This document shows positions 13,140-56,765 of a DNA stretch of 64,000 bases, piece after piece. This DNA comes from a virus (Duplodnaviria > Heunggongvirae > Uroviricota > Caudoviricetes), in IMG/VR virus record IMGVR_UViG_3300029705_006930, one strand, 5' to 3'. The position numbers and the translations under genes are program-made. The stretch's first letter is position 1. Every line of letters starts with the position of its first letter. The notes under the pieces were generated by a model, which was given only the letters and a program-made list of their open reading frames with translations, made no database searches and had not been told where the DNA came from.

Positions 13140-14540
13140 ATGGCACACACATTTAAAAAATGGATGATAAAAGCCATTCCATATGACAACTTGTTTGACA
13201 TATCGGTGGACTTTGAGAATCCATTCCCGACCGATAATCGTCGCGATGCTACACTCGCGGCTGCATTTCACTGTTTGATTAAAGACAGAATTCCAGAGGG
13301 GGTTAATCGCATTGTAGTGCGTGATATCCACTCATATGACTGCAACGTGAGAGACATTTTTGACTATTATGAGGTTGAAAATGGTTTCAAAAGTTGTATT
13401 TTTTACTACGCAGATTGGGACAATGTGAATCTGCAGAGCAAAATTACATTGCCAAATGAATGGGAAGCTCAGGAAATTGCAAGCAAATTTACTGGATGTT
13501 ATGTTACAAATCACGTATCAAAACAATTGATGGTTATCTTTATTCCGAGCAACTATAACCTTGAAACTTGGCATAGACTTGGTGCATTGTTACCAAAATA
13601 TCCAGTGCTCGAGGATATGTGGGCAGCAAAACCACTTACCGAAGATGAACTCAAGATGTTGAAATCACTGTCAACAGACGGTGTAGATTTTGACACATAT
13701 ATAAAAGCGTGGATTGCGACACTCGACCTGCGCACATCCGCAATCAAAAAAATGTTCAACAAATTCATTATTGATAACATCGAGGAACAGATACGCAATG
13801 CCGAAGATAGACGTAGAAGCCTTGAAAACAATATCACAGACTATGCTGCGAGACTGGCAAGGCTGTATAGCGACCTTGACGGTGTTATTGAAATGATAAA
13901 CCGTCTTATGATAGGTGATGACACTGTTGAAGAAAAAGAAAAGAGACTTATCGAATTCTTGTTAACAAACAAAAATGTTGAGCCAATCAGACGTCGCAAT
14001 GACCGCGTTGAATTCAATGTTCACGCAGCAATTGACTGTTGGGATAACGATATGTTCTCATCTTATATCAATAATCACAACAGTTTATTGTATCGCCATA
14101 CAAGCAGATATTCATATGACCAGTTGAAACGTTTTTATGAGCAGGCATTGTTTGCCGGTCGCTTTAAAATTCAGGGCATTGCTAAATTTGAAATTGCAGC
14201 AACAGGTAATGTGAGACCAATTTCAAAAAATGGGCATTGGCCATCAGCTGAAATCGAAAACTGTATTCCAAATACACATGTGGATAAATTCACTTGTATT
14301 GGTAATCACAGACGTATGCTGGATGATGCTGCAAAAATTCGTGACTATGAACAGGCAATTTTGATTGCTATTCAGATTACACAGTCAGTTAACTGGTCGG
14401 ATGGTGCAGTTATGAATCACTTTATTCCTGAAGTGTTGCACTGTGAACGTCCAATTCTTACAGACAGAACAGGCAATACATACACTGTTGCACAGGTAAT
14501 AAGCATACTTGATGCCGAAATAAAGGAGGTTGAAAAATAA
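13140..14540 (+). CDS. hypothetical 466-aa protein of Ubl/E1/JAB cassette (PRTRC protein B position; possible E2-like or adaptor)
   Basis: AAAGAGAGGAGCTCAGT RBS. Stop overlaps start of JAB gene (ATAATG). No motif recognised by eye. Confidence 0.5.
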   Translation: MAHTFKKWMIKAIPYDNLFDISVDFENPFPTDNRRDATLAAAFHCLIKDRIPEGVNRIVVRDIHSYDCNVRDIFDYYEVENGFKSCIFYYADWDNVNLQSKITLPNEWEAQEIASKFTGCYVTNHVSKQLMVIFIPSNYNLETWHRLGALLPKYPVLEDMWAAKPLTEDELKMLKSLSTDGVDFDTYIKAWIATLDLRTSAIKKMFNKFIIDNIEEQIRNAEDRRRSLENNITDYAARLARLYSDLDGVIEMINRLMIGDDTVEEKEKRLIEFLLTNKNVEPIRRRNDRVEFNVHAAIDCWDNDMFSSYINNHNSLLYRHTSRYSYDQLKRFYEQALFAGRFKIQGIAKFEIAATGNVRPISKNGHWPSAEIENCIPNTHVDKFTCIGNHRRMLDDAAKIRDYEQAILIAIQITQSVNWSDGAVMNHFIPEVLHCERPILTDRTGNTYTVAQVISILDAEIKEVEK

Positions 14541-15475
14541 TGAAACCAATAAGATTGACCGATGATGTAAAAGCGGCTATTCTTGATAAATTTGCAAAAC
14601 AGCTGAGCACGGTTGTACGTGCTTCAACTATTACATTCACACATACGCCAACAGTGGTAAGCACACCGTTAGGCAAAGATGAAAAAGTGCTGATTACTTA
14701 TACAGCAGAAGCATTCCGCAAGCAGCAGATGCTTATTCAGAGTTTTGACAGTGAAGTGGCTTGGCACGGTGTTGTTGAACGTGAAGATGCAAAGCATTTT
14801 ATTATTACAGATATCGTAGTATATCCCCAGACTGTTACCGGCTCAACTGTTGAGATGGACGAAGACAAATATGCTCTTTGGACAATTCAGTTCGGTCGTG
14901 AACACGGCGAAGAAACATTCCAGAAACTGCGTATGCAGGGACATAGCCACGTGAATATGGAATGTTTTGCAAGTGGTACAGACTCTAAACACCAGGATGA
15001 CATCTTGGCAACAACTGACCCAAATGGGTTCTATATTTTCATTATTGCCAATAAAAAAGGCAAATTCTGGAGCACTATTTTCGACCTCGAAGCAAATGTT
15101 CAGTATGAAAATGCTGACATCGAAATCGAGTATGAGGAAGATGAGTACGATGAATTTGTAAGTGCAGCAGAAAGTGTGGTTGTAAAAAAGACTTATACAC
15201 CACCTTACAACTATGGCAATGGCTATCACAACAACGGAGCAGGGTATTCATACGGGGCAAGCGCTTATTCTCAGAAGCCACCTCAGACTCCGCCTATGCC
15301 AGTGCTTCCGACAAATACACAGCCAAAAACAAGCACAAACGAAACAAACACAAAGGCAAACACAAACACAAAAAAGGACGATAAATCCATTGAAGAAGAT
15401 ATCACCAATCTTATTCAGATGTCATTGAACGATATGGAATGGGATGAAGTTGGTGGATGGACAAGCAAAATGTAA
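14540..15475 (+). CDS. JAB/MPN (JAMM) metallopeptidase-domain protein with Tyr/Gly/Asn-rich low-complexity C-terminal region
   Basis: HSHVNMECFASGTD matches the JAMM motif H-x-H-x7-S-x2-D, with upstream Glu residues. C-terminal 110 aa low complexity, ending ...NDMEWDEVGGWTSKM. Confidence 0.6.
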   Translation: MKPIRLTDDVKAAILDKFAKQLSTVVRASTITFTHTPTVVSTPLGKDEKVLITYTAEAFRKQQMLIQSFDSEVAWHGVVEREDAKHFIITDIVVYPQTVTGSTVEMDEDKYALWTIQFGREHGEETFQKLRMQGHSHVNMECFASGTDSKHQDDILATTDPNGFYIFIIANKKGKFWSTIFDLEANVQYENADIEIEYEEDEYDEFVSAAESVVVKKTYTPPYNYGNGYHNNGAGYSYGASAYSQKPPQTPPMPVLPTNTQPKTSTNETNTKANTNTKKDDKSIEEDITNLIQMSLNDMEWDEVGGWTSKM

Positions 15476-15484
15476 GGAGAAATT

Positions 15485-16174
15485 ATGGACTTAAGTAAAT
15501 CACTTGACTGGTTTAATCCAGACAGCGTTTCGGAACGCATACATATTATCGGATGCGGTAGTGTAGGTAGTACAGTTGTGGAACTGTTGGCAAGATTCGG
15601 TCTTACAAAGTTCACTCTGTATGATTTTGACCTTGTTGAACCTCACAATATCGCAAACCAGATGTTCAGAAAAACGGACATTGGTAAAACAAAAGTTGAA
15701 GCATTGCAGCAGATTGTATGTGAAATCAATCCAGAGGCGGGCAAAGATATTAAACTTGAACCAGAAGGTTGGCACGGACAGCAGTTGTCTGGCTATGTAG
15801 TTCTTGCTGTTGATAGCATTGAATTGCGTAAAAAGATTTGTGAAGGTTTGCAGATGAATATCTTTGTTAAAGCTGTGTTTGATTTCCGTACAAGTTTGCT
15901 CAACGCACAGCATTATGCAGCCAATTGGCAGGACAAAAAACATCGTGATGACCTCATTGCAACAATGCAGTTCACCGATGAAGAAGCTGCGGCTGAAAAC
16001 CCAGTATCAGCGTGTGGTGTAACACTTGGTGTCGCACCAACAGTAAGACTGATATGCACACTAGGCGTAAGCAATATGATGAACTTTTTCAGAGAAAAGA
16101 AATTGAAAAAAGTTGTATTGGCAGACGCATTTAATTTTGATGCTGACCCTATGGTATTACCTATGGGTCAATAA
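15485..16174 (+). CDS. ThiF/MoeB/HesA-family E1-like adenylyltransferase
   Basis: IIGCGSVGS Rossmann GxGxxG; YDFDLVEPHNIANQMF (D-x-D...N-x-x-R-Q-like) signature of ThiF/E1; Cys in ENPVSACG. Confidence 0.7.
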   Translation: MDLSKSLDWFNPDSVSERIHIIGCGSVGSTVVELLARFGLTKFTLYDFDLVEPHNIANQMFRKTDIGKTKVEALQQIVCEINPEAGKDIKLEPEGWHGQQLSGYVVLAVDSIELRKKICEGLQMNIFVKAVFDFRTSLLNAQHYAANWQDKKHRDDLIATMQFTDEEAAAENPVSACGVTLGVAPTVRLICTLGVSNMMNFFREKKLKKVVLADAFNFDADPMVLPMGQ

Positions 16175-16198
16175 TACACAATAAGAGAAATGTTTATG

Positions 16199-16500
16199 GT
16201 GAATATTGCACATTGTATGGCAAGCTTTTGCTGTTAGCAGAAGTAAAGAAATGGTAGAGAACATAGAGGCAGGCGCTTAAGGAGCACGCTGAGGTGATTC
16301 CTAAGTACTGCAGCTTCTTGCATCCGACGAGCTCTGAAAAGGTAGGTTTAACAGGAGGATTGGATTACTTACAAGTGAAATTAACCAGTTCAAACCGTAA
16401 AGCTCATCTGAAATTAACGATAAATCCCAGATTTGCATCTCTTTTATCCGGGAATGAAGGGCTTAAAACTATAGCTAGACCATAAACAAGATAGGGAGGA
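16199..16500 (+). ncRNA. candidate structured ncRNA unit A, upstream of RT
   Basis: Non-coding 330-bp gap. Boxes TGAATATTGCACATTGT, TTGCTGTTAGCAG (16228), GAAATGGTAGAGA (16248), AACAGGAGGATTGG (16350), CCAGTTCA (16385) are shared with units at 17873 and 18398. Confidence 0.35.
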
Positions 16501-16504
16501 CATT

Positions 16505-17860
16505 ATGGTTTATATCACATATCCAGCACCTAACAAATTTCATCAGATTACATTTGAAGAAATGATGTCGGGCAATGTTAATACAGATAAATTAAGAATT
16601 TTAGGCGGACATAATACGCTTACTTTGCATCTTAACGATGTACCTGCAAACTTAAAAGGTCAGACTTCTGTACGCAAAATGATTGCAGATTTGCAGTATT
16701 TTGTAGGTGTATATTATGACACACTGATGCCACAGATAAAAGAATTTGAGAAGCTTTCAGATGCTCAGCGTCGCAGCGTCAAACAGCGTGACAAGATTGA
16801 AAATTATTTTGAACAGATGGGCGCAACTGCAAATGATGAAGACTTGCAGAAAATCACTGAACAGGTAGATGCGCTGCAGTGTGAAGTTGCAGAACAGCAG
16901 TATAAATATGCTTACTATACATTCGATTTGCGCAAAAGTTCAGCGCCGGAACACATTCCATTGTGGCGACTGCCAAAAGAATACAGACGTACAATCAATG
17001 CTCCGAACATACATCTTAAAAATGCGCTATATGAACTTAAAGAACTGTTTGAAAATATGATGATACGTACATATCATACTGCATCATTTGCGTATGTTAA
17101 ACATCGTGGAACTTTGGATGCTGTAAAACGTCATCAGAGCTGGGAAAGCAAATGGTTTGCAAAGTTTGACTTTTCAGATTTCTTTGGTAGCACAACAATT
17201 GACTTTGTTATGCAACAGTTCTCTCAAATATATCCGTTTAATATGATTTGTGCATATAAAGATGGTAAAGAAGCTCTTTATAAAGCATTGCAGTTGTGTT
17301 TTTTGGACGGTGGACTTCCACAGGGCACACCTATTAGTCCTCTCATCACAAACATAATGATGATACCATTTGACCACGCAATGTCAAAAGCTCTTAAAGA
17401 ATTTAAATATCCAAACAAACACGGTAGTGAACGTTTTGTGTATACAAGATATGCTGATGACCTGCTTATCAGTTGCCGTGTGGATTTTAAAGTGGAAATT
17501 ATTCAGGCATTTATTCTGGAAACTTTAAAATCAATGAATGCGCCTTTTAGCCTTAACGTTAAGAAAACTCGTTACGGTTCTAGTGCAGGTAGCAACTGGA
17601 ATCTTGGGGTGATGCTTAACAAAGACAATAAAATTACAATCGGTGCAGAAAACAAGCGCAGACTTAAAGCTTCTTTGAATTCATTTATCCTTGATATGAA
17701 GAATGAAAAACCTTGGGATATTTCTATGGTGTATAGACTCAGAGGTCAGATTTCTTATTATCGTAATGTGGAAAGGGAAGCAACAAATAACATCATTGCA
17801 GCGATGAACACAAAATATGGTGTTGATGCAGAAGCAATGATGAAATCTATTATAAGTTAA
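16505..17860 (+). CDS. reverse transcriptase (retron/DGR/UG-Abi clade)
   Basis: GATAGGGAGG RBS; motif 1-2 region YYTFDLRKSS...RRTINAPNIHLKNALYEL; motif A FDFSDFFGS (DFFxS type); motif B' LPQGTPISPLITNI; motif C YTRYADDLLIS. ~130-aa N-terminal extension. Confidence 0.8.
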   Translation: MVYITYPAPNKFHQITFEEMMSGNVNTDKLRILGGHNTLTLHLNDVPANLKGQTSVRKMIADLQYFVGVYYDTLMPQIKEFEKLSDAQRRSVKQRDKIENYFEQMGATANDEDLQKITEQVDALQCEVAEQQYKYAYYTFDLRKSSAPEHIPLWRLPKEYRRTINAPNIHLKNALYELKELFENMMIRTYHTASFAYVKHRGTLDAVKRHQSWESKWFAKFDFSDFFGSTTIDFVMQQFSQIYPFNMICAYKDGKEALYKALQLCFLDGGLPQGTPISPLITNIMMIPFDHAMSKALKEFKYPNKHGSERFVYTRYADDLLISCRVDFKVEIIQAFILETLKSMNAPFSLNVKKTRYGSSAGSNWNLGVMLNKDNKITIGAENKRRLKASLNSFILDMKNEKPWDISMVYRLRGQISYYRNVEREATNNIIAAMNTKYGVDAEAMMKSIIS

Positions 17861-17872
17861 TTTAATTTTTAT

Positions 17873-18150
17873 ATATTGAATATCACAGTCATTGTGAAGT
17901 GTTGATGTTATCGGCACTAACGAAATGGTAAGAAAGTATGGCAGGAAGGCCCGCAGGTTCATGATGAAGACGCGTGCGAGCTTACAGCTCCAGCATAAAA
18001 ATTAGAAATGCTGGTACAATGAAAAGGAAGAAAATCATGAACGAAAGCCATACTTTCCAACATCCACAAAACCACGAATTTAAAACGCTTCATTACTCCG
18101 CGACCCTCCGCCAGGAGGGCCCGGGCGCGGTAAAGCGTCAAATAAATAAT
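17873..18150 (+). ncRNA. candidate structured ncRNA unit B, downstream of RT
   Basis: TATTGAATATCACAGTCATTGT, TTGATGTTATCGGCA, GAAATGGTAAGAAAG (17925) homologous to unit A. Ends with GC-rich compound hairpin CCGCG-ACCCTCCGCCAGGAGGG-CCCGGGCGCGG (18097-18129) and box ATTGAGAATA (18148). Confidence 0.3.
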
Positions 18151-18167
18151 TGAGAATATATAAAAAA

Positions 18168-18350
18168 ACTTTATTGAATATCTTTAAATTTGTACATAAA
18201 TTTAAGAACTGTTGCTGTTAGCAGCAGTGTCAAACGAACAGGATAAATAAAGAAATACAAATTTCTTTATTTAAATAACTTCTTAGCGTCGTAAGGCGCG
18301 ATGCTCCGACATCGCTCATGACGACGCCAAAGTTATTGAGAATAAAGTTA
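18168..18350 (+). repeat. degenerate partial copy of the ncRNA unit
   Basis: TATTGAATATC (18171), TTGCTGTTAGCAGCAG (18210), GC-rich hairpin GCGTCGT...ACGACGC (18285-18326), box ATTGAGAATA (18334). Confidence 0.25.
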
Positions 18351-18397
18351 AAAAAATAATAAGAAAAATAAACAGTGTATATTTGCATAGCAAAGCT

Positions 18398-18760
18398 ATT
18401 GATGTAATCAGTAGTACAGAAATGGTAGGAAAGATTACACGGGACGGTGTCGCCGGTGAGGAGCCACCTCCTTTGCAAACCCCTGCAATATTTCTAAAAC
18501 CTAATTAAAACTATGTCCGAATGGTCAAACATAACAGGAGGACTGAGAAACATCACCTGAAGGATACCAACTGAACCCCCAGTTCAGATGACACGACAGC
18601 TGGAGAAATCTAGACCCATGGGATGGTGATTCAACATTAAATTACAATTCAGACTGTTTATTGCTTTATAGTTTTTGCCAAGCTACGAAAACTCCAAATA
18701 ATGAGTAGTGTGTGACATAAAAGCCAAGCCTCGTCAACTCCCTTTCGGGGCTTGGTAAAG
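18398..18760 (+). ncRNA. candidate structured ncRNA unit C
   Basis: TTGATGTAATCAG...GAAATGGTAGGAAAG (18420), AACAGGAGGACTG (18532), CTGAAC-CCCCA-GTTCAG hairpin (18570-18590), terminal hairpin GCCAAGCC...GGCTTGG (18722-18757). Confidence 0.3.
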
Positions 18761-18797
18761 ACTATAAAACAAACAATTTAAGTAAAGGAGAATATAT

Positions 18798-19187
18798 ATG
18801 ACAAAAGCAGAAAAAGCAGCTGGCAGGCTGTTAAGAAGAATGAATAAAGAATACTTGGGTGAGGTAGAAGCATTGATAAAAATGTGTCGACAGCCTAAAG
18901 TTGACCTTTCTGAAATCAGTATTCAGTCCTACAAAGTAACAGTTTTGGCAGAGCTCAAAGACGAATTTTTTGCAATCAAAATGACAGAAGATGAAATGGA
19001 GTATATTTATGACCTCTATGCTTGTCTTGATGCTCCTTTGAATTATTTGTGGGAATGTTGGCGTGATGATGAAGGCTATAACATTTCTGACTCCATTGGT
19101 GATTTAGTTTCTGATATTATAAGCCAGGATATCGAATGTATTTCAGAAGATAACTTAATCGAGGTGAATATGGATGAGACTGAATGA
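18798..19187 (+). CDS. hypothetical protein
   Basis: AAGTAAAGGAGAATATATATG RBS; 129 aa; acidic. Confidence 0.45.
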   Translation: MTKAEKAAGRLLRRMNKEYLGEVEALIKMCRQPKVDLSEISIQSYKVTVLAELKDEFFAIKMTEDEMEYIYDLYACLDAPLNYLWECWRDDEGYNISDSIGDLVSDIISQDIECISEDNLIEVNMDETE

Positions 19188-24224: not shown

Positions 24225-24536
24225 ATGAAGATATGGGTTGATGATATAAGACCTGCCCCAGAAGGATATGTATGGTGCAAAAGTGTAAACGAAGCAAAGA
24301 TAGTTATAAAACATCCTGACTTATACGCAACTAGAAGACAAAGGAATATTGAAGTTATAGATACAGACCATGACGCTGGGGCATATGCTTATGACGGAGG
24401 AGACTACATTAAACTTTTAGATTGGTTAGAGGAAACAAATAGGAATTATCCAATCAGAATTCACAGTATGAATCCTGTCGGAGTTGCAAATATGAGAGCC
24501 ATTATTCAGAAAAATGGTTGGAAGGAGATTTTATAA
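24225..24536 (+). CDS. hypothetical protein
   Basis: GGAGGACAGGTAATT RBS; 103 aa. Confidence 0.45.
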   Translation: MKIWVDDIRPAPEGYVWCKSVNEAKIVIKHPDLYATRRQRNIEVIDTDHDAGAYAYDGGDYIKLLDWLEETNRNYPIRIHSMNPVGVANMRAIIQKNGWKEIL

Positions 24537-24871
24537 TGTTACAAGCCAAAGAAATCTATGAAAATGCCTTAGCCCTTAATCCGAAATCAAATCCTGATAA
24601 ACCATATAAAGAGAGTTATGTCGTTGATATGATAAATCAGGTTTTAGAACAATCACAGAGATACAATCAGCGTATAAGGACACTAAAGAGAAAAGATGAA
24701 CAACCGGGCGTGCCATATATTAAAGGCATACATAACGAGATTGATTTTGAAATCGAATTTTATGCCCCATTGAGTTATGGTCTAGCAGCATTGATTGCAG
24801 AAGACCTTGGCGATACGCGTCTTGGGCTATTGTATCAAAAACAATTTATGACTTTGCTTACGATGTTTTAA
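24536..24871 (+). CDS. hypothetical protein
   Basis: GGAAGGAGATTTTATA RBS before internal ATG. Confidence 0.4.
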   Translation: MLQAKEIYENALALNPKSNPDKPYKESYVVDMINQVLEQSQRYNQRIRTLKRKDEQPGVPYIKGIHNEIDFEIEFYAPLSYGLAALIAEDLGDTRLGLLYQKQFMTLLTMF

Positions 24872-24908: not shown

Positions 24909-25262
24909 ATGCAAGAGGTTAGATTTTTACTTGATTTTTATGTGCCTTTTAACAGGTGGAAAATAGCTTTGATGAATGTTCCCGAAGAACAATATAAAAT
25001 CAATCCAGGTTTAGGAATATCTCTTACACAGTTTGCATATGATGAACACTTGTCCGAAGGTGGTAATCATTATGAATTTGCGTGTCAGGTGCCAAAGCGA
25101 TTTTATAGATTGCTTAGATTACATCCGGATTGGGAGCCTGTAGATGCTGTAGAACTTGCGAGAATGCTTGAAGGTTATATTAAAGCTGATTGGTCTATTG
25201 AATATAATCCTCCAATTATTACATATGAAACAAGCTTTGAGGAACTGATGGGAGGAGTTTAG
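24909..25262 (+). CDS. C-terminal-motif family member 1 (tail ...TYETSFEELMGGV)
   Basis: AAAGGGAGATTTATATG RBS; conserved C-terminal acidic/hydrophobic motif followed by GG. Confidence 0.5.
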   Translation: MQEVRFLLDFYVPFNRWKIALMNVPEEQYKINPGLGISLTQFAYDEHLSEGGNHYEFACQVPKRFYRLLRLHPDWEPVDAVELARMLEGYIKADWSIEYNPPIITYETSFEELMGGV

Positions 25263-25263
25263 T

Positions 25264-25590
25264 ATGGAAGAAATGAGTTCAACCAGACTAGCCATTACTC
25301 CGCTGATTGACAAAACACGATATGGATGCGGAGTTGTAGGTGCAGGATATCCATGCGAAATTACATCAGATGCCGTTGAATTTATTAGTAGCATAGCAAC
25401 AGAAACATATACGACGGGAACAGGCCGTGTGGATTATACAATATCACATCCAGCATCCATATATAATGATGTCGTCTCTGAAGGAAGATGTTTGACACAA
25501 GCAGTGTTAGATTATATTTTTAATCATGTATTAATCCAAGGTATTGATTATGAAATGAATTTTGAAGAACTTATGAAAGGAGAGCCATAA
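25264..25590 (+). CDS. C-terminal-motif family member 2 (tail ...DYEMNFEELMKGEP)
   Basis: GGGAGGAGTTTAGT RBS; abuts upstream stop. Confidence 0.5.
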   Translation: MEEMSSTRLAITPLIDKTRYGCGVVGAGYPCEITSDAVEFISSIATETYTTGTGRVDYTISHPASIYNDVVSEGRCLTQAVLDYIFNHVLIQGIDYEMNFEELMKGEP

Positions 25591-26057
25591 TGGAGATACA
25601 GAATTTTTGTGAATATTTTAATATTCCAACCAACGCAGATATCTCTGTACAACGTGCTGATGACCCATTTGAACGAATGCAGATAGTAGCAGAATATTTT
25701 TCAGGTGGTGGTTGTAAATGTGAACATATAATTAATTTCGATATGGCTCTTTTATATGCTCAACCAAATGAGGCAGTTTACTCTATTTTATATATTGCTA
25801 ATAATATGATACTGAATATTCCAAAACAGTTATTTGATGCAATATTTATTGAATCAAATAATTTTGAGACTGCATCAAATATACCACATTATATAGCTGT
25901 ATTCTCACAATCATCAATGAATTTAGCACAACGAAAAACACAAGTTGAGGAATTGATAAAAAAACATCAGGAGATATTGCATAATCATCATATACCAGAA
26001 ATTATATATGACTTGGATTTTGATAACTTAATGATAGGAGGTAATGCATCATGTTAG
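25590..26057 (+). CDS. C-terminal-motif family member 3 (tail ...IYDLDFDNLMIGGNASC)
   Basis: Start overlaps upstream stop (TAATGG). Confidence 0.5.
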   Translation: MEIQNFCEYFNIPTNADISVQRADDPFERMQIVAEYFSGGGCKCEHIINFDMALLYAQPNEAVYSILYIANNMILNIPKQLFDAIFIESNNFETASNIPHYIAVFSQSSMNLAQRKTQVEELIKKHQEILHNHHIPEIIYDLDFDNLMIGGNASC

Positions 26058-26473
26058 ATTTTTACGAGCATTTTGGATTATCTGAAGATGTTCGGGTAAC
26101 AGCTGAATCTGTAGATGATGAACTACGTATAGTTTGTTGGGATAATGAGACAAAATATATTGTTCCGTTTGATATGATTATCTTGCCAGAGTGGTGGGGT
26201 GATGAAAAAAATGCATATATCCTGACTAAAAATGATACATTTATTCGTATGCCTCATGGTTTGGCTGTAAATGTTTTTGAAAGAGCGCGTGGTGGTTATT
26301 GGCATTATGACAATGATAAATGGGTAGCTGTGTCCTCATGTTATTTAGGTTATGAAAGAATTCAGAAGAAAGCATCTATTTTGCTGCGAAATATAAATAA
26401 TATTTTAATGGAAGAAGATAGTCATAGAAGCTCAATATCTTATGATGTTGAGTTTGATGCATTATTTAAATAA
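26051..26473 (+). CDS. C-terminal-motif family member 4 (tail ...SYDVEFDALFK)
   Basis: Overlaps upstream gene by 7 nt. Confidence 0.5.
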   Translation: MLDFYEHFGLSEDVRVTAESVDDELRIVCWDNETKYIVPFDMIILPEWWGDEKNAYILTKNDTFIRMPHGLAVNVFERARGGYWHYDNDKWVAVSSCYLGYERIQKKASILLRNINNILMEEDSHRSSISYDVEFDALFK

Positions 26474-26483
26474 AGGAGAACAA

Positions 26484-26813
26484 ATGAATATAACATTTTA
26501 TATACATAGTACAGGGCGTCAATATTTTTTAACTGCGCTGGGCGGTGCAGCCGTGCGTATCAGTCAAAATATGTATACAAGATTACAAAGACATTCTGTG
26601 GATGCAGGCGATGAAATGGTTAACCGAAGAGTTCGCACCAAACGTATTTTAAATATTGAAGATTTAAATTTCGAGAACAATTATAACTACAATACATATC
26701 GTTTGTATGATTTCTTAGAAAGAAATTACAGGTCATGGCGTAACTACACCACAATCACCTCAGAAATTGTTTATGACGAAAATGCTCTATCTTGGGACGC
26801 TCTTTTTCAGTAA
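26484..26813 (+). CDS. C-terminal-motif family member 5 (tail ...YDENALSWDALFQ)
   Basis: AAAGGAGAACAA RBS before internal ATG; motif more degenerate. Confidence 0.4.
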   Translation: MNITFYIHSTGRQYFLTALGGAAVRISQNMYTRLQRHSVDAGDEMVNRRVRTKRILNIEDLNFENNYNYNTYRLYDFLERNYRSWRNYTTITSEIVYDENALSWDALFQ

Positions 26814-26825
26814 AGGAGATAATAT

Positions 26826-27185
26826 ATGAACGAACATAAACGGATTTTACCAGAAGAGGGTGCCTATGAGGAACGATTTGCTGTTTATCCAAACCCTAAA
26901 GAACCAACTACATATGTGATGGATGTAAGGTCGCTGACAAGATACAATCCAGCGAGCAGTTTGGTTATTGATGATGCAGTTTTGGAATCACTCAGTATAT
27001 TGTCTTACCACAGTTTTGAAGCTGTACGTCCAGATACAACAGTATATTGCATGTTTATAAAAGATGCAGAAAAAGACAATTTTTTAAAAGACCCTGTGCA
27101 TTGGTTGCTACAAACACAAGTTATGAATACTCCAAGAATGGAATATGAGTTGGATTTTGACACACTGATAGGAGTGATAAAATGA
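26826..27185 (+). CDS. C-terminal-motif family member 6 (tail ...EYELDFDTLIGVIK)
   Basis: AAAGGAGATAATAT RBS. Confidence 0.5.
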   Translation: MNEHKRILPEEGAYEERFAVYPNPKEPTTYVMDVRSLTRYNPASSLVIDDAVLESLSILSYHSFEAVRPDTTVYCMFIKDAEKDNFLKDPVHWLLQTQVMNTPRMEYELDFDTLIGVIK

Positions 27186-27646
27186 GAAACTTTGAAGAAG
27201 TTTTCCCAATTGATTCTAATATTGAGTGTTATATAGCGCATCAAACATTGGTGAATTTGAAGTTGGCAATAGCAAATAAATATGACACATCACAAATAAT
27301 GACGACAATAGCTTTTGATTATGTGATACGTATATTCCCGGCGTCCCATCTTGATAACCCAATTACAATTATTAGTATAAATGGGCGCAAATATTGGTTA
27401 TCTTATAAGTTATATACCAAAATATTTATGCGCAGCCGCAGAAATCAGCGTGTGTTGTTTAATGAAGACAATCAACAAGAGGATATTGGACTGGTTATTA
27501 TGATTAGCAATAGTCCGGTGCATTTAGACAACGTATCGGATATTGTAACGGAAATTATTGAGCAAAAATGGTCAGGGCCCATAGGCATAATGAATGAGTT
27601 ACAGCAAATTGAATATATAGGGAGTTTTGAAGATTTATTAAAGTAA
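27182..27646 (+). CDS. C-terminal-motif family member 7 (tail ...EYIGSFEDLLK)
   Basis: ATGA overlap with upstream. Confidence 0.5.
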   Translation: MRNFEEVFPIDSNIECYIAHQTLVNLKLAIANKYDTSQIMTTIAFDYVIRIFPASHLDNPITIISINGRKYWLSYKLYTKIFMRSRRNQRVLFNEDNQQEDIGLVIMISNSPVHLDNVSDIVTEIIEQKWSGPIGIMNELQQIEYIGSFEDLLK

Positions 27647-27658
27647 GGAGATGATTTT

Positions 27659-28144
27659 ATGGCACACATAGATTTAGGCAATGAATATTATACACATGTT
27701 ATCTCGGAAATCAGAATTACGCCTCCAGAATCTGTAAATGATATGTTGATTCCAAGCAGAGCAATTCATTGTAACCCTTATACAGACAACGTATGGGCAC
27801 AAATCAGATTTCACTTACATAATCAATTATGTCACCGTGGCTATATATATTGGATTGAAAATGCAATATCTAAACCAGATGGTATGGTGTATTTAAATTT
27901 GTCTCCATATCCTGTATTAGGTCGTGATAAGCAATGTTGTATGAGTAAAGAATTGTTTGAAATGCTTCTTGAATATGCAAGAAATATCAAGCACTATGGT
28001 AGCTTACACAGTACTTGTGATTGGCAAAGCAGGGAATATACAATGCTGAAAGTGCGCGAGACAATTTCTGCAATGCTTAAAAAAATAGAATATGCAATGG
28101 ATTTTGATGAGCTCTTAGGAGGTCAGAAATATGACAGCGATTGA
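27659..28144 (+). CDS. C-terminal-motif family member 8 (tail ...EYAMDFDELLGGQKYDSD)
   Basis: AAGGAGATGATTTT RBS. Confidence 0.5.
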   Translation: MAHIDLGNEYYTHVISEIRITPPESVNDMLIPSRAIHCNPYTDNVWAQIRFHLHNQLCHRGYIYWIENAISKPDGMVYLNLSPYPVLGRDKQCCMSKELFEMLLEYARNIKHYGSLHSTCDWQSREYTMLKVRETISAMLKKIEYAMDFDELLGGQKYDSD

Positions 28145-28499
28145 TTTATTAACACAAAAGGATGTACCTAAAGGAGCATATCGAGTATTGATAGTATGTG
28201 ATGCCACTATAGGTTTTGTGTGTAAGCATTATGCATTGATAGAAAATGAAAACAAAACTTGTCAATATATTATCGAGTGTCAAATACAAGGGGATTTGGA
28301 AAAGTTTTATAGTGCCACATATCAAGGCTTGAAGATGGAATTCTATCGGGTTACTACAGTTGAACAGCCTGCAATAACCGAGGATTCACTTGAAATTCAG
28401 AGGATGATAGATTTCTTATTTCAGGTATATCACATAAATTTAAAGTACGAAAATATGTGTTATGAAATTGATTTTGACCAGTTGATGGGAGGAATATAA
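28131..28499 (+). CDS. C-terminal-motif family member 9 (tail ...CYEIDFDQLMGGI)
   Basis: Overlaps upstream gene. Confidence 0.5.
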   Translation: MTAIDLLTQKDVPKGAYRVLIVCDATIGFVCKHYALIENENKTCQYIIECQIQGDLEKFYSATYQGLKMEFYRVTTVEQPAITEDSLEIQRMIDFLFQVYHINLKYENMCYEIDFDQLMGGI

Positions 28500-28951
28500 T
28501 GTTTGCAACAATGGTAAATGGTGAAAAACATCTGATAACGCAAGTTGATTGGAGGCCTATATTTAATGATGATGGAAAATGTATTGAAAGAGAAATTTCT
28601 ATAAAGTTCGACTATGATGAATCATTGCGAGCAGCAAAATATAGAGTTGGCTGGTTTGTTGATGAGCATGTAAATAACGAAATACAAGTACATTTAAAAT
28701 TGCGTAATGATAAAACAATTCCAGTTATGATTCCTACGATACTCGCAGAAGCAATGGTGGAATATCAACGCAAATTGCAAAAAGAAGGGTTCTGTGGTTT
28801 GGCTACAGGAGCTCCAGAGTGGTTGTTGACATGGTATTCTGAACAACAACTGAAATTTGGAACTGAAAATGTATTTCATTTTAATAGAACAAATGAAATT
28901 AAGACAATGACTTATGAAGTGGATTTATTTGAGGAGTTGATAAACAGTTGA
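28499..28951 (+). CDS. C-terminal-motif family member 10 (tail ...TYEVDLFEELINS)
   Basis: ATAATG overlap with upstream stop. Confidence 0.5.
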   Translation: MFATMVNGEKHLITQVDWRPIFNDDGKCIEREISIKFDYDESLRAAKYRVGWFVDEHVNNEIQVHLKLRNDKTIPVMIPTILAEAMVEYQRKLQKEGFCGLATGAPEWLLTWYSEQQLKFGTENVFHFNRTNEIKTMTYEVDLFEELINS

Positions 28952-29238
28952 ACAAACAAGATGAAGGATATGCCACACTGGGTGATATGACTGCAATATT
29001 TGCAACCATAAATGACCGGACAGACTATTTGGAACATCTGGCGAATTCATCAGCAGCCCGTATTATGGATATAGAGTCAAAAAGTGATTGTTATATAACT
29101 CAATCTTCGCTATATTGTATGCGCGATGACCTCTTACAGCAGATTAGTGAGCTTCGAGAGACAGTGAACATTTTGCTGGACAAGTATAATGCACTAAACC
29201 CACCTATCAGCTTTGATGAAATGATGGAAGGAGAATAA
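28948..29238 (+). CDS. C-terminal-motif family member 11 (tail ...PPISFDEMMEGE)
   Basis: TTG start overlapping upstream stop with GGAGG 11 nt upstream (alternative ATG at ~28984). Confidence 0.4.
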   Translation: MNKQDEGYATLGDMTAIFATINDRTDYLEHLANSSAARIMDIESKSDCYITQSSLYCMRDDLLQQISELRETVNILLDKYNALNPPISFDEMMEGE

Positions 29239-29239
29239 T

Positions 29240-29530
29240 ATGCATTTTAATGAACATCTTCGTAGGGTATGGGAGCGAACTACTGCTGCAATAACTACAT
29301 CTGACCATACGGAAAATACAGTGACTTCGTATGTTACAACAAGAAGTGTTCCTGATTATTGTACTACAAGCTGGACAGCACAACCATCATATAAACAATG
29401 GGTACATAAAGATGATTTGGATGCATTAAGATATTCCCTTGGCTGGGCAACGTCAAATCCGGCAGTAAAAGAGCCAGTATCACCGAAATACGATATGGAG
29501 TTTGAAGATTTGTTCAAGGAGGAGACATAA
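29240..29530 (+). CDS. C-terminal-motif family member 12 (tail ...KYDMEFEDLFKEET)
   Basis: GGAAGGAGAATAAT RBS. Confidence 0.5.
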   Translation: MHFNEHLRRVWERTTAAITTSDHTENTVTSYVTTRSVPDYCTTSWTAQPSYKQWVHKDDLDALRYSLGWATSNPAVKEPVSPKYDMEFEDLFKEET

Positions 29531-29763
29531 TGCCGCCGAGACCAACATTTTTTGATGAGTTTACAGAAAATATAGTGCACAACACAATGCGAGAATTATC
29601 TGAATATGCAGCCCACTCCACGTTATCAATGGAAGACTCATTAGCTGATTTGAAAGAAACGTTGAAACGACTAAACATAAGTATTAATTTTGTAGAAACA
29701 GAATCTTTGACAGAAATTACATATGAGGCAGAATTTGAAGATTTAATGAAAGGAGATAAGTAA
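29530..29763 (+). CDS. C-terminal-motif family member 13 (tail ...TYEAEFEDLMKGDK)
   Basis: AAGGAGGAGACATAATG; overlaps upstream stop. Confidence 0.5.
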   Translation: MPPRPTFFDEFTENIVHNTMRELSEYAAHSTLSMEDSLADLKETLKRLNISINFVETESLTEITYEAEFEDLMKGDK

Positions 29764-30311
29764 TGTATTTTATTGGTGATACACATTTTGGCCATAAAAA
29801 TATTTTGGCCTATGATAACAGGCCTTTTAGTTCTATTGAACATCATGATGGCGAAATAATTCGACGCTGGAATAATAAGGTTACAGATATGAATGCAGAC
29901 GTTTATATGCTTGGTGATGTATCTTGGTATGGCGTTGAAAAAACAGTTGAAATTTTGAATCAGTTGAATGGTAAGAAGCATTTGATTGTGGGCAACCATG
30001 ACCATGCATTGCTTAAATCTAAAGCATTTAGAGATTGCTTTGTTGAAATTGCGGACTATAAAGAATTATATCTTGACAAAAAGACCGCAATTGTTTTGTC
30101 ACATTATCCAATTCCTACATATCGTAACTGTTACCACGGTTGGTATCATTTTTATGCTCATGTACATAACGGTTATAAACATAATATGATTTTAAAAATT
30201 AAGCAGCAGATGTGTGACTTGTATCAGAAACCACATAATATGTTTAATGTTGGAGCAATGATGCCGTGTTGTAATTTTGCACCGGTCGCCTTGGACGAAA
30301 TTGTGAGGTAA
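29763..30311 (+). CDS. calcineurin-like metallophosphoesterase (phage Ser/Thr phosphatase-like)
   Basis: GDTHFGH ... LGDVSWYG ... GNHDH metallophosphatase motifs I-III. Confidence 0.6.
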   Translation: MYFIGDTHFGHKNILAYDNRPFSSIEHHDGEIIRRWNNKVTDMNADVYMLGDVSWYGVEKTVEILNQLNGKKHLIVGNHDHALLKSKAFRDCFVEIADYKELYLDKKTAIVLSHYPIPTYRNCYHGWYHFYAHVHNGYKHNMILKIKQQMCDLYQKPHNMFNVGAMMPCCNFAPVALDEIVR

Positions 30312-38919: not shown

Positions 38920-38938
38920 ATAAGATGAGGTGAAATAC

Positions 38939-39931
38939 ATGGATTATACTCGATTAATTGATGAATTTTTAGATGCAGTTGCAAGAAATGAAAATCCAAA
39001 ACAGCATTATAATTATATAAAAGTATTTTCTATCATTAAGAACTATGTTATTGAGAAAAATAAAAGCCTGGAAGAAATGAACCTAAAAGAGCTGGATGAA
39101 TTATTTTTCACTCGCTTCACAGGCAGAGCAGATAGTATCAAGCGCATAGTCACTTATTGTCGTCGATATATAAGATGGCTGCAAACAACGGGCCATTTAT
39201 CTTTTAGGGACGCTGAAAGTCATATTTTATTTGACTTAAGATATTATAATACAAGTTATATTACATCACATAAATTGTATCGTGCAGCTAAATTAAGCAG
39301 TGTGTTTTTTAGTACCGAAGAATATGTTGATTATATGTCTACTGTTTTCGATGAAAAATTAACACAAGGCGACAACACTCGTTATTATACCGATATCGCA
39401 GTTTTTTATTTAAGCTGGTTGGGATTTACAATTGATGAAATGCTGAAATTGAAGAAAAATGATTTTGATTTTTCATCGCGAACTATTGCCGGCAAATATA
39501 TCTCTGATGAGCGAATGCTTACCTTTTTAAACAAGTATAACCAATCTGATACTTATGAAAAATTACGCAAAGGCCATAATTTCACAACAGAAGAATATGT
39601 TTATAATGAATATGAGTTTTTAAAAGGGAAAACGACAGCTTTAAATGAGATGGCCATTTATAACATATTCCGAACAACACGACAACGTATCAATGAATTT
39701 AACAGGGATAATATAGATAATCAAATTGAAAATAAAGTTGATTTCAACAATATTAAAAAATCTGCACTGTTTGAATATATTTATACAGTCCAGAAGATTT
39801 CATATTTTGAAACAACAACTTCTGGTGTTGCTCTTTTCGCTTCGTTTATTAAAGATGAAATACCGACAAGTGCAATTATGCCGTTAATTGAAGATTATAA
39901 TCTATGGGTAGAAATTAGAGGCTCGCTGTAA
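38939..39931 (+). CDS. hypothetical protein
   Basis: GAGG RBS then ATG; 330 aa; stop embedded in GCTCGC-TGTAAA-GGCGAGC hairpin. Confidence 0.45.
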   Translation: MDYTRLIDEFLDAVARNENPKQHYNYIKVFSIIKNYVIEKNKSLEEMNLKELDELFFTRFTGRADSIKRIVTYCRRYIRWLQTTGHLSFRDAESHILFDLRYYNTSYITSHKLYRAAKLSSVFFSTEEYVDYMSTVFDEKLTQGDNTRYYTDIAVFYLSWLGFTIDEMLKLKKNDFDFSSRTIAGKYISDERMLTFLNKYNQSDTYEKLRKGHNFTTEEYVYNEYEFLKGKTTALNEMAIYNIFRTTRQRINEFNRDNIDNQIENKVDFNNIKKSALFEYIYTVQKISYFETTTSGVALFASFIKDEIPTSAIMPLIEDYNLWVEIRGSL

Positions 39932-40945: not shown

Positions 40946-41006
40946 TTTACTCTTTGTTTTTTCGGCAAAAGCCTGAAAATAAATATTTTAAATGAAAAGG
41001 AGATTT

Positions 41007-42227
41007 ATGGAAACAAGATTTAGTTTTACCGGGAAACTTGTATTCCCAAAAGAAGGCTCTAAACAGCCTTTTGTGGTGTCCTCATCATACAAAGATGCTG
41101 GCTCACAGAAAGAAATTCCATCTTTGCGAATGAATGTCGGCATCCGCGAAGGTGAAGCAAATACTGCTTATATCAGTGCGTTTGGTTCAGCAGATAATGG
41201 CAGAGATATTTTCTCAATAGACAAAGACAATAACAAGATTTCGGTTGCTTGGAAAGACCGATTTGATGCAGATGTTATTGAATCTGTAGCTTCTTATCGT
41301 CTTTATACTGTTGACTTAGCTGACCCAGAACAGAAGGCAGATTTGCGAGAAGCACTTAAAACCGATGACTATTCTATTGTGTCTGAAAAATATGGTGTAA
41401 CAAATAAAGATGGTGCTGATGCAATGCTTAAAGCTTTGCAGTCAGAACGTAAACAGTTTATTACTTCATATGATTTTATTGAATACCTGTCAAAAGAACT
41501 TCCTAAATGCAAACACAAAGTAACTGCAACAGGTCGAGTACGTAAAAGATTTTATAAGGACAGATATTCTGATAATTTTGAAGTTACAGCTATTTATGCT
41601 GTAACCAATGACACAAAAGAAAAACTGAGTCTCACAATGGACTTGTACTACAACAAAGATTGTGTTGATGCAACTGACCTGGAAACTGAAAAACGTATTT
41701 ATGTAAACGGTTATGTGCAGCAGTACATCAATAAAGATGAGGGTAACAAAATGATGCCTCAGCAGGCAATTCTTGATTTGTCAAAGTATCAGCTTGAAAC
41801 AAACCCGCGACATAAACAGTTGGCTGACTATAAACGTAGCTATCTTGAAGGCTTAGACGAAGAATATGTACATATGAATTGGGAAGTGCGCTATCTCAAT
41901 GGTGCAGATGTGGTTGAGTTTACAAAAGATTTGCTTACTCCGGCACAGCTTGCTCAGGTGGAACTTGGCATAAAAAATGTGGAAGATTTTAAACCACGCG
42001 GAAACATTTTTGGTGAACGAGTTGTCGAATATCGTCTTGCTGACCCAAAACTTATGGGTGATTTTGCTGATGGTTTGGTAAAAACAGGTGAGTATCCAAA
42101 TGAATTTGAAGCTCAGATTTATGTTCCTAACAAGACAGTAAATATTGAAGCAGAAGTTGCAAAAGTTACAGCACCTAAAGAAACTAAAAAAGCAATTGAC
42201 GAAATCAGTGAAGAAGACCTCTTTTAA
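41007..42227 (+). CDS. putative ssDNA-binding/recombination protein of the replication module
   Basis: AAAAGGAG RBS; N-terminus METRFSFTGKLVFPKEG resembles gp2.5-like phage SSB N-termini. Precedes phage-type AAA ATPase; assignment tentative. Confidence 0.3.
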   Translation: METRFSFTGKLVFPKEGSKQPFVVSSSYKDAGSQKEIPSLRMNVGIREGEANTAYISAFGSADNGRDIFSIDKDNNKISVAWKDRFDADVIESVASYRLYTVDLADPEQKADLREALKTDDYSIVSEKYGVTNKDGADAMLKALQSERKQFITSYDFIEYLSKELPKCKHKVTATGRVRKRFYKDRYSDNFEVTAIYAVTNDTKEKLSLTMDLYYNKDCVDATDLETEKRIYVNGYVQQYINKDEGNKMMPQQAILDLSKYQLETNPRHKQLADYKRSYLEGLDEEYVHMNWEVRYLNGADVVEFTKDLLTPAQLAQVELGIKNVEDFKPRGNIFGERVVEYRLADPKLMGDFADGLVKTGEYPNEFEAQIYVPNKTVNIEAEVAKVTAPKETKKAIDEISEEDLF

Positions 42228-46217: not shown

Positions 46218-47234
46218 TTGAATGATTATCTGCAAGCACGTCCGGACGACGTACTTAAAGTCCTTAATTCATTGGGATTACCTAATTTGTCACATAACAG
46301 AGGACGAAATGAAATCAGATATTCATCAAGAGTAGGTAGCAATCCTACCTCAAATATTTTTTATTTAGATACACTTAGGTATTACAGCTTTTCAATGGGT
46401 GAAAGTGGAAATCTTTACACATTGGTGATGAACAATCAGAATTGTAATTTCCCGCAAGCCTTAGAATATGTGGCGCAAGTAGTTGGACTTTCCAAAAATG
46501 AATTCAATACTGAAATCAAATTACCATTTGGTGGCTTCTATAAAAAACTCATAAAACAACAGCGCGAACCTGAGTTGGACATACCTACATATCCTGATTC
46601 GCTCCTTGAGGAATACAACGGGCAGCTAAGTCTACAATTTTTTAATGATGGCATCAATTTCCAAACACAAGAAAAATATCATATTGGGGTTGATTTTTCT
46701 GCAATGCGCATAGCAATTCCACAATGGACAATTAATGGTCAGTTATGCGGAATTATGGGCAGAGCAATGGGAAAAGATGTACCGCATGAAGAACGTTGGC
46801 TACCTATTATTCCGTGCACGAAAAGCTACACATTATTTGGCTATCATCAAAACTATCATAAAATTCAAGAAAAAAATATGTGCATTGTATTTGAAAGTGA
46901 AAAAGCTGTATGTCAGCTTGATAGTTTTGGTTGTTATATTGGACTTGCAACAGGGGGATGTCATATTTCTTCAACACAAGCCAAATATTTGCGTGCATTA
47001 AGAGTTGAAAAAATTATTATTGCTTATGATGAGGGCCTTGATGAAGAACATATTATTGCCCAGGCACAAAGACTTCGCAGTAATGAAAATCAGCTTGTTA
47101 GAGGAGCGAAGATAGGATATATCTGGGACGATAATAATACATATTTGCCACTTGGCAGCAAAATGAATGCAGCTGATGTTGGTAAAGAAAAATTTATAAA
47201 ATTAATCAAAGAAAAAGTGAGGTGGCTCGAATAG
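46218..47234 (+). CDS. DNA primase (TOPRIM domain)
   Basis: TTG start per ORF track; TOPRIM-like EKIIIAYDEGLDEE acidic motif with upstream E in FESEKA; genomic context between helicase and nuclease. Confidence 0.45.
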   Translation: MNDYLQARPDDVLKVLNSLGLPNLSHNRGRNEIRYSSRVGSNPTSNIFYLDTLRYYSFSMGESGNLYTLVMNNQNCNFPQALEYVAQVVGLSKNEFNTEIKLPFGGFYKKLIKQQREPELDIPTYPDSLLEEYNGQLSLQFFNDGINFQTQEKYHIGVDFSAMRIAIPQWTINGQLCGIMGRAMGKDVPHEERWLPIIPCTKSYTLFGYHQNYHKIQEKNMCIVFESEKAVCQLDSFGCYIGLATGGCHISSTQAKYLRALRVEKIIIAYDEGLDEEHIIAQAQRLRSNENQLVRGAKIGYIWDDNNTYLPLGSKMNAADVGKEKFIKLIKEKVRWLE

Positions 47235-56749: not shown

Positions 56750-56765
56750 TAGATGGGGGAATAAA

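Follow-up and report, generated by a model that had tools for sequence, protein, structure and literature searches.

Why would thirteen consecutive small genes of one virus end in nearly the same acidic peptide, when their bodies bear no evident relation to one another? The question is raised by a stretch of DNA of 64,000 nucleotides (nt) from a virus of the Caudoviricetes (IMG/VR record IMGVR_UViG_3300029705_006930), analysed in its whole length and referred to here as the window, in which 13 consecutive open reading frames (ORFs) of 77-161 amino acids (aa) occupy positions 24909-29763 of the + strand, all of them with a related C-terminal peptide. A first description of this array, produced from the letters alone and called here the sequence-only reading, had proposed a docking peptide for a common host or phage partner, a virion-packaging or secretion signal, or a substrate tag for a nearby JAB/E1 machinery. 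On balance, we lean towards reading the locus as an array of cassettes in a large integrated prophage, encoding small accessory proteins that evolve fast, are restricted to their lineage and carry a common docking or address tail.

The 13 ORFs, numbered m1 to m13 in their order, are all in place on the + strand as first described, each with a strong Shine-Dalgarno sequence (SD) in front of it and each translationally coupled to its neighbours, with overlaps of 1-14 nt or gaps of 1-12 nt. The initial list of ORFs was amended at m5, whose true start is most likely the ATG at 26484 (109 aa) and not position 26442, as suggested by the SD AAAGGAGAACAAATG and by the agreement of gene callers on identical or related contigs. 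The common tail comprises 11 residues and is acidic, with the consensus [IM]-x-Y-[ED]-x-[DESN]-F-[ED]-x-L-[MLFI]; it is canonical in 10 of the 13 members, carries an insertion of three residues in m5 (IVYDENALSWDALF) and of one residue in m10 (MTYEVDLFEELI), and is devoid of the Tyr in m11 (PPISFDEMM). The motif as originally given, Y-E-x-[DS]-F-[ED]-[ED]-L-[ML]-x-G/GG, captured a shared peptide that does exist, but this peptide is longer, and the final x-G/GG does not belong to it. Scanning the six-frame translation of the whole 64 kb with a position-specific scoring matrix of the tail gave scores of at least 12 bits for 12 array members and nowhere else, all matches being situated 1-8 residues from a stop codon; at the DNA level, a degenerate pattern of the tail produced 4 matches against 0.00 expected (100 shuffles).

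From the first gene to the last, m1 (24909..25262, 117 aa) ends in ITYETSFEELM (25218-25250), followed by GGV from the SD of m2, and m2 (25264..25590, 108 aa) in IDYEMNFEELM (25543-25575), followed by KGEP (SD AAAGGAGAG). The tail of m3 (25590..26057, 155 aa), IIYDLDFDNLM (26001-26033), continues as IGGNASC (SD AGGAGG), and that of m4 (26051..26473, 140 aa), ISYDVEFDALF (26435-26467), as a single K, with the stop before the SD and no Gly. A stop before the SD is also found in m5 (26484..26813 with the revised start; tail at 26766-26807, then Q) and in m7 (27182..27646, 154 aa; IEYIGSFEDLL at 27608-27640, then K); between them, m6 (26826..27185, 119 aa) ends in MEYELDFDTLI (27138-27170) and GVIK (SD AGGAG). 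The recombinant tail of m8 (27659..28144, 161 aa), IEYAMDFDELL (28085-28117), is followed by GGQKYDSD, that of m9 (28131..28499, 122 aa), MCYEIDFDQLM (28455-28487), by GGI (SD GGGAGGA), and the extended tail of m10 (28499..28951, 150 aa; tail at 28907-28942) by NS. The last three members are m11 (28948..29238, 96 aa, TTG start), with the degenerate tail LNPPISFDEMM (29194-29226) and then EGE (SD GGAAGGAG); m12 (29240..29530, 96 aa), with PKYDMEFEDLF (29483-29515) and KEET (SD AAGGAGGAG); and m13 (29530..29763, 77 aa), with ITYEAEFEDLM (29716-29748) and KGDK (SD AAAGGAGAT).

The variable residues at the very end of these proteins find their explanation in the next gene. When the tails were aligned codon by codon with the Phe codon as anchor, the distance from this codon to the following start was constant at 26-33 nt (with 26484 as the start of m5; the exception is m11, with its TTG start at +20), and GGAGG or AGGAG stood directly after the L-[ML] codons. 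Read in frame, this SD yields G-G (GGA GGA), K-G-E (AAA GGA GAG), E-G-E (GAA GGA GAA) or K-E-E (AAG GAG GAG), and in m4, m5 and m7, where the stop codon lies ahead of it, the tail contains no Gly. Gly-Gly is present in only four of the 13 members, in every case as the GGAGG of the next gene read in frame, and the same imprint is seen in arrays of related phages (see below), as LEE encoded by CTGGAGGAATAATG in the locus L025 and as GGEV in L104. The residues after L-[ML] (G, GG, KGE, EGE, KEE) are set by the overlapping SD of the next gene and are therefore not part of the peptide motif. Neither does the array resemble a double-glycine leader, as the motif is C-terminal and merely 1-8 SD-encoded residues come after it. 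More generally, C-terminal G, GG, KGE or EE in tightly coupled operons with strong SDs may be imprints of ribosome-binding sites and not diglycine processing motifs.

Purifying selection acts on the tail as a peptide, and not on its DNA or RNA. When the ten in-register members are compared in pairs over their nine core codons, the mean nucleotide identity amounts to 0.67, 0.82 and 0.42 at codon positions 1, 2 and 3, respectively, and the near-invariant Leu (12 of 13 members, with Met in m11) is encoded by TTA (4), TTG (3), CTG (2), CTT (2) and CTC (1), roughly following genome-wide frequencies. Between the window and the sister strain L084, described below, the tail cores differ at 5 of 99 residues (5.1%) and the bodies at 144 of 1226 (11.7%; one-sided Fisher p=0.024); of the five changes in the cores, four are conservative (D to E, E to D, L to F, I to M), and the fifth (A to T) falls in the inserted stretch of the atypical m5 tail. 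A closer variant, L007, gives the same picture. The ratio of nonsynonymous to synonymous changes (pN/pS) is 0.38 in the array versus 0.08 in the flanking genes, so that the members are real genes evolving about five times faster at the protein level; m2 is the most constrained among them (dN/dS 0.08). The first claim of a common short tail on diverse small proteins is confirmed in this respect, and gains selection at the peptide level, visible in free third positions and slower-changing tails. As for RNA, structure at the 13 junctions is neither conserved nor unusually stable, with z-scores mostly near 0, which rules out an explanation by RNA hairpins or SD occlusion. A single junction, in the m4 tail (26428-26456), has an unusually stable hairpin (AAGCUCAAUAUC/GAUGUUGAGUUU, 12-bp stem, z = -3.2), which is not common to the other junctions.

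The bodies, once freed from their tails, show no member-to-member similarity above that of 301 decoy ORFs from the same window (blastp, phmmer), and a Gibbs motif sampler detected no motif common to them beyond shuffled controls; at the sequence level, their description as unrelated holds. An AbrB/MazE-like 'IP..L' strand-helix motif, which seemed visible by eye in seven bodies, was rejected for want of statistical support. The bodies are between 63 and 143 residues long and diverse in composition, with m11 and m13 helical, m12 rich in Thr/Ser, and m3 and m9 rich in beta structure. No member has a significant match in Pfam or PHROGs, nor do the four members tried against PADLOC. In a word-indexed search of 5.8 billion proteins, m8, m3 and m2 found relatives solely in their own phage lineage, the sole homologue of m8 being a variant at 93% identity, while a full HMMER search of 1.84 billion representatives returned for m10 only its own cluster and spurious repeat proteins; the matches of m10 to eukaryotic Ig/FN3 repeat proteins were discarded as repeat-summed artefacts. 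The AlphaFold2 model of m3, built from three sequences (predicted local distance difference test (pLDDT) 64, predicted template modelling score 0.60), has residues 1-125 folded as a beta-rich domain with two helices, and no significant structural neighbour was found for it; the model of m8 is unreliable (pLDDT 38). A buried tail helix belonging to a common fold had been named at the outset as an observation that would speak against a free tag: in the m3 model, the tail residues 131-134 and 136-152 are unpacked with pLDDT below 50, which answers this point only as far as one model of moderate confidence can. These comparisons reach the sequence level, and a fold shared by all bodies is a possibility of low probability.

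Comparison with close relatives suggests how such an array changes. Homologues of m3 and m2 led to two syntenic sister strains, L084 (about 95% nucleotide identity) and L167. Both contain, between m8 and m9, a fourteenth member, mX (139 aa, tail VYDVEFDELLGGKKYDSD; L084 12580-12999, L167 12900-13319), which is absent from the window, and in both of them m8 ends in KKIEYE[IM]DFDDLSIM. The window m8 tail is a hybrid of these two: up to GATTTTGAT it is like the sister m8 tail, and from GAGCTCTTAGGAGG onwards like that of mX, the crossover being placed by three-way alignment in the common TTTGATGA of the F-D-[DE] codons. As judged from this alignment, mX is a cassette lost from the window strain, or gained by the others, via a crossover within the F-D-[DE] codons of the two tails. 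Replacement of bodies is seen as well. The body of m3 in L084 and L167 is 46-50% identical to that of the window, with the last 24 residues identical; the replaced region corresponds to window positions 25700-25975, and both the N-terminus and the tail of m3 are conserved. In L167, the body of m10 is 43% identical with the tail kept (13674-14132), and the strain background of these replaced bodies is roughly 87-96% identical in nucleotides. These divergent m3 and m10 alleles appear to have been exchanged by recombination. Furthermore, m1 is N-terminally truncated to 63 aa in L084. The junction repeats are 44-49 nt long, with 60-78% identity. Taken together, the strain comparison shows the tail-coding DNA as the crossover junction for loss, gain and replacement of cassettes, with reading frame and translational coupling preserved.

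To look beyond the sister strains, loci were collected around a gene upstream of the array, which encodes a cREC-type receiver-domain protein (PF20274; 24225..24536, +) and is separated from m1 by m0 (24536..24871, +; 111 aa), a gene without the tail motif that is conserved in the sister strains. This anchor retrieved 18 loci from IMG/VR and 79 from GTDB genomes, mostly metagenome-assembled genomes of Clostridia from animal guts, and the tail of the window is present in none of them. An unbiased scan within each locus for over-represented C-terminal peptides recovered the window array and three further lineages: nine genes in L025 (301-6523 and 12316-12923), most of them ending in [IV]PDF[LIM]DLL-COOH; five in L019 (10312-11390 and 17212-17873), most ending in DIDxxLSxL; and four in L104/L105 (L104 7024-7571; L105 551-2287), ending in [FY]D[DE][LI]F. 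The tails of all lineages have a chemistry in common (acid, hydrophobic, x, x, hydrophobic, hydrophobic), and those of the relatives lie at the exact C-terminus unless the SD overlaps, as in L025, where proteins end in DLL-COOH or LEE-COOH. The bodies of the related arrays contain no Pfam domain and are mutually unrelated except for the paralogue pairs L019 10312/10665, L105 551/1892 and L025 5821/6188; no body is common to different lineages. Absence of the motif from related phages was the other observation held, in the sequence-only reading, to speak against a tag, and the outcome speaks for the tag: sister strains keep the tails even where bodies have been replaced, and more distant lineages carry arrays with acidic-hydrophobic tails of their own. 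The conservation in sisters together with the analogous tails in relatives favours a functional tag. Other routes were less productive. Megablast of the array against GenBank phages gave no match, and the cREC protein gave distant matches only; the degenerate tail DNA pattern had single chance matches (3 in IMG/VR and 46 in JGI metagenomes), two of them at ORF ends (L056, L069) because the pattern itself contains the SD; an L025-type tail pattern matched only the contig of L025 in IMG/VR; a search anchored on the phosphoesterase gene downstream of the array gave three loci, all without an array, and a search by the downstream gene of 159 aa gave none.

How these observations could fit together may be proposed as follows. 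As a short linear motif for docking or addressing, the tail would bring all the different bodies to one common partner, with the Tyr, the Phe (i+4) and the L/M residues (i+7, i+8) predicted on one face of a short helix, between acidic residues and behind the I/M-x-Y stretch. The partner would be lineage-specific or co-evolving, and hence more probably encoded by the phage itself than a hub conserved across all hosts, because the tail variants are lineage-specific. The DNA similarity upheld by selection on the peptide could in turn be what enables the shuffling of cassettes. Of the docking peptide first envisaged, what stands is a tag on diverse proteins that is selected as a peptide, with a capsid or scaffold receptor, a pocket for DEELF-type tails and cREC as candidate partners. 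Several points weigh against the docking array as a whole. We infer the docking function itself from the architecture and from selection, and the contrast between tails and bodies is significant at p=0.02 only. The 10 residues preceding the tail are not linker-like in composition (Pro 5% versus 4% in bodies), and the one usable structure model, that of m3, is of moderate confidence. The paralogue pairs of the related arrays indicate that duplication and divergence contribute; all related arrays were found by anchoring on a single gene, cREC; and about 90 other loci with cREC relatives have no such array within +/-10 kb, so that the feature is sporadic.

Other explanations have been considered alongside the docking tag. 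According to one of them, the members are precursors resembling ubiquitin-like proteins, ending in Gly-Gly and tagged for the nearby ThiF/E1 protein and a supposed JAB. A ThiF-family E1 domain does exist at 15485-16174, GG is found near the C-terminus of four members, and L025 possesses both a ThiF module and a tail array; the reading fails nonetheless, since G/GG comes from the SD of the next gene, and it is scarcely credible on the remaining evidence. The GG is missing in nine of the 13 members, and the tails of L025 are without Gly despite its ThiF module; the E1 lies 9 kb and about 25 genes away from the array, beside a retron-type reverse transcriptase (RT); the m3 body does not appear as a beta-grasp in its single model of moderate confidence (pLDDT 64); and the JAB thought to be nearby was not recovered, as Pfam, NCBIfam, PADLOC and PDB sequence searches detected neither a JAB nor an E2 domain in the two family-less neighbours of 466 aa (13140-14540) and 311 aa (14540-15475). 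It has also to be asked whether the conserved unit is a nucleic-acid element, kept as a recombination site or translational-coupling signal with the peptide as a by-product. Crossovers that map within the tail-coding repeat, the fixed register between motif and SD, the junction repeats themselves and the precedent of a conserved 3'-end/intergenic/5'-end unit in tandem paralogues (PMC2568036) would agree with it, but the poor identity of third codon positions (42% versus 67-82% at positions 1 and 2), the use of five Leu codons, the lack of conserved RNA structure at the junctions and the persistence of the peptide chemistry in relatives with entirely different DNA make it very improbable. We consider it unlikely, on the other hand, that the members form a single paralogous family whose common fold has diverged beyond sequence recognition and requires the tail as a structural element. 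The tandem arrangement and the clear paralogue pairs of related arrays are what such a family would show, and the m3 and m8 models resemble each other in the succession of their elements (beta strands, helix, helix, tail), the m8 model being unreliable; against this, the tail-less bodies are no more alike than decoys and share no motif beyond shuffles, their lengths and compositions differ widely, the m3 tail is not packed, and bodies have been swapped for alleles 43-50% identical with the tails unchanged.

The remaining explanations differ in the partner to which the tail would be directed. A virion or capsid address tag, loading the small proteins into the capsid or onto the scaffold or portal for injection with the DNA, has precedents in the C-terminal cargo-loading peptides of encapsulins and in the capsid-targeting sequence of T4 internal proteins. 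It would account for diverse small cargo (77-161 aa) with a short conserved terminal peptide, for lineage-specific tails, which a receptor among the phage structural proteins would lead one to expect, and for fast-evolving bodies, expected of host-interacting effectors; it is rather unlikely all the same, for the array has its place among early/middle genes, with a retron-type RT module on one side and replication genes on the other, and not in a structural module, and no capsid gene was found in the window or the flanks examined. The tails might instead mimic the acidic C-termini of SSB and other replication or recombination proteins, competing for their pocket or borrowing it. Three larger proteins encoded by this prophage terminate in [DE][DE][DE]LF-COOH, array tails of L104/L105 end in YDELF-COOH and FDELF-COOH, and the SSB of L025 ends in DELPF. 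SSB-type tails, with an acidic run and [IL]-P-F at the free C-terminus, require the carboxylate of the terminal Phe, whereas the window tail has no P-F, is not at the extreme C-terminus and is followed by 1-8 arbitrary SD-encoded residues; the order of acidic and hydrophobic residues is different, and there is no obvious reason to bring 13 different bodies to the replisome, all of which renders such mimicry decidedly unlikely. A beta-clamp motif (Q-L-[SD]-L-F or Q-L-x-L-x-L) is no better match, with the first Q or the second Leu in 0 of 13 tails. Docking onto the adjacent cREC protein, in the manner of the N-terminal FliM (EIDALL) and C-terminal CheZ peptides on CheY, is suggested by the position of the arrays of all four lineages within 10 kb of a cREC gene, and CheY-binding peptides have the same chemistry as the tail (acid, hydrophobic, x, x, hydrophobic, hydrophobic). 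That proximity is subject to ascertainment bias, every related locus having been fetched by the cREC anchor, and about 90 cREC loci are without an array; the C-terminal half of cREC is nearly invariant across lineages with different tails; and what weakens the idea is the prediction that cREC is a cyclic-phosphate-processing enzyme and not a signalling receiver (PMC7824862). We hold it to be most improbable. 

Returning to the cassette array with a common docking or address tail, a broader proposal can be put forward tentatively, as possible but not probable: some large temperate phages of gut Clostridia might run a tag-and-receptor system, in which a lineage-specific C-terminal peptide would deliver a changing set of unrelated small effectors to a phage-encoded receptor (the inside of the capsid, from which they would be co-injected, or a takeover hub), with the DNA of the tag as recombination junction, in the way of an integron-like in-frame exchanger.

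The element to which the array belongs is represented in the window by its early/middle and replication part. Its genes include a tyrosine integrase, sigma-like and HTH proteins, FolD, SLT, AAA_24, DnaB, a primase, a PD-(D/E)XK nuclease, PHP, Pol III alpha, ThyX, SPFH, two ATP-dependent ligases and a ribonucleotide reductase (RNR) split by an HNH gene; no beta clamp or portal was detected among the window proteins scanned, and Rfam gave no match in the window. A large serine recombinase is encoded at the window end (62420-64000), and ordinary bacterial genes come next on the 208-kb source contig (L087 10800-20498), namely PTS EIIC, peptidase M28, GNAT, a pseudouridine synthase, MerR/TipAS and a RecD2-type helicase. 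From the terminal serine recombinase and the adjoining bacterial genes, the element is an integrated prophage, SPbeta-like in its gene set, and not a free jumbo phage. Its Pol III alpha is 36-39% identical to those of Geobacillus E3, the Bacillus Sophrita group and Lactococcus 949-group phages. Further recombinases are present besides the serine recombinase, a tyrosine integrase (2621-3442, -) and an MrpR-like protein (38930-39931), and the two ATP-dependent DNA ligase genes lie at 110-1411 (-) and 55427-56749 (+). The HNH gene at 58424-59182 splits the RNR large subunit into an ORF at 56628-58085 and another, with a TSCPD domain, at 59278-60246, an arrangement that looks like the insertion of an intron or homing element.

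Some neighbouring features deserve mention on their own account. The module at 13140-17860 is composed of the family-less 466-aa and 311-aa proteins, the ThiF/E1-domain protein and the retron-type RT adjoining it, and the same module is found in L025 at 13311-18540. The ThiF/E1 protein resembles the E1 part of the Cap2-like E1-E2 proteins of cyclic-oligonucleotide-based anti-phage signalling systems; the best PADLOC match of the RT is RT_II-A (E=2e-41), with the NCBIfam retron St85 RT below the cut-off. The spacer upstream of the RT has an unremarkable fold, and the approximately 940 nt downstream of the RT (17860-18798) contain no ORF of at least 90 aa on either strand. A diversity-generating retroelement was discarded: the window has no direct repeat of at least 50 nt, and the RT matches retron families. 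The module is possibly an undescribed prophage-borne retron-like system. The three larger proteins with acidic LF ends are encoded at 1456-2409 (-; ISDDELF), 40992-42227 (+; ISEEDLF) and 47222-48325 (+; TSDEELF); the last is the PD-(D/E)XK nuclease of the replication module, and the other two are without family. Their DEELF-type tails look like docking tails of the SSB or T7 gp2.5 type. Finally, the array is bracketed by cREC (cyclic-phosphate-processing receiver-like) and a calcineurin-like phosphoesterase (29763..30311, +) that is translationally coupled to m13, both predicted to be enzymes processing nucleotides or RNA ends, and it may have expanded between two functionally linked genes.

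If the address tag is true, a whole set of ORFan phage proteins would become accessible to experiment through one peptide, the common partner would be named by a single pull-down, and the tag could be used to find or deliver cargo. The array also illustrates a simple route by which phages can turn over accessory genes with reading frames and translational coupling left intact; selection on the common peptide would keep up the very DNA similarity that recombination exploits.

No description of phage arrays of unrelated ORFans with a common C-terminal tag was found in the searchable literature, yet several known systems resemble parts of it. As in terminal address and cargo-loading signals, a short conserved terminal peptide is found here on unrelated proteins. 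Encapsulin cargo peptides and the T4 capsid-targeting sequence are alike in using one terminal peptide to address unrelated proteins to a single receptor, the peptide covarying with the lineage of the receptor; their cargo genes are shell-adjacent or late, whereas the present array is early/middle, and the T4 tag is N-terminal and cleaved. The tails of SSB (DDDIPF), T7 gp2.5/gp4 and T4 clamp-binding proteins are likewise acidic and hydrophobic C-terminal docking peptides, but the motif of the array exceeds them in length, stops short of the free C-terminus in the window, and is borne by 13 unrelated ORFans that are not replisome parts. Dot/Icm effectors, with their acidic E-block, also combine many unrelated bodies with a short acidic C-terminal signal, although they are scattered in a bacterial genome and serve a known machine, in contrast to one tandem prophage array. 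From the viewpoint of gene turnover, integron cassettes share the ordered array of unrelated small genes and the turnover by cassettes; unlike them, the array has no attC sites or integron integrase, its exchange proceeds by homology within coding sequence, and every cassette keeps the protein tag. Polymorphic toxin/immunity orphan cassettes and the tandem lipoproteins of S. aureus have in common with it a conserved junction as crossover site between variable modules, but those modules are recognisable paralogues or toxin tips with a conserved domain boundary, and here unrelated bodies meet at an 11-residue C-terminal peptide. In the S. aureus tandem lipoprotein cluster, the evolutionary unit reaches from the 3' end of a gene across the spacer into the 5' end of its neighbour (PMC2568036), and this conserved unit is the nearest published idea to the one developed here. 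The finding is thus a combination of known themes, terminal address or docking peptides on the one hand, and cassette arrays with conserved junctions on the other.

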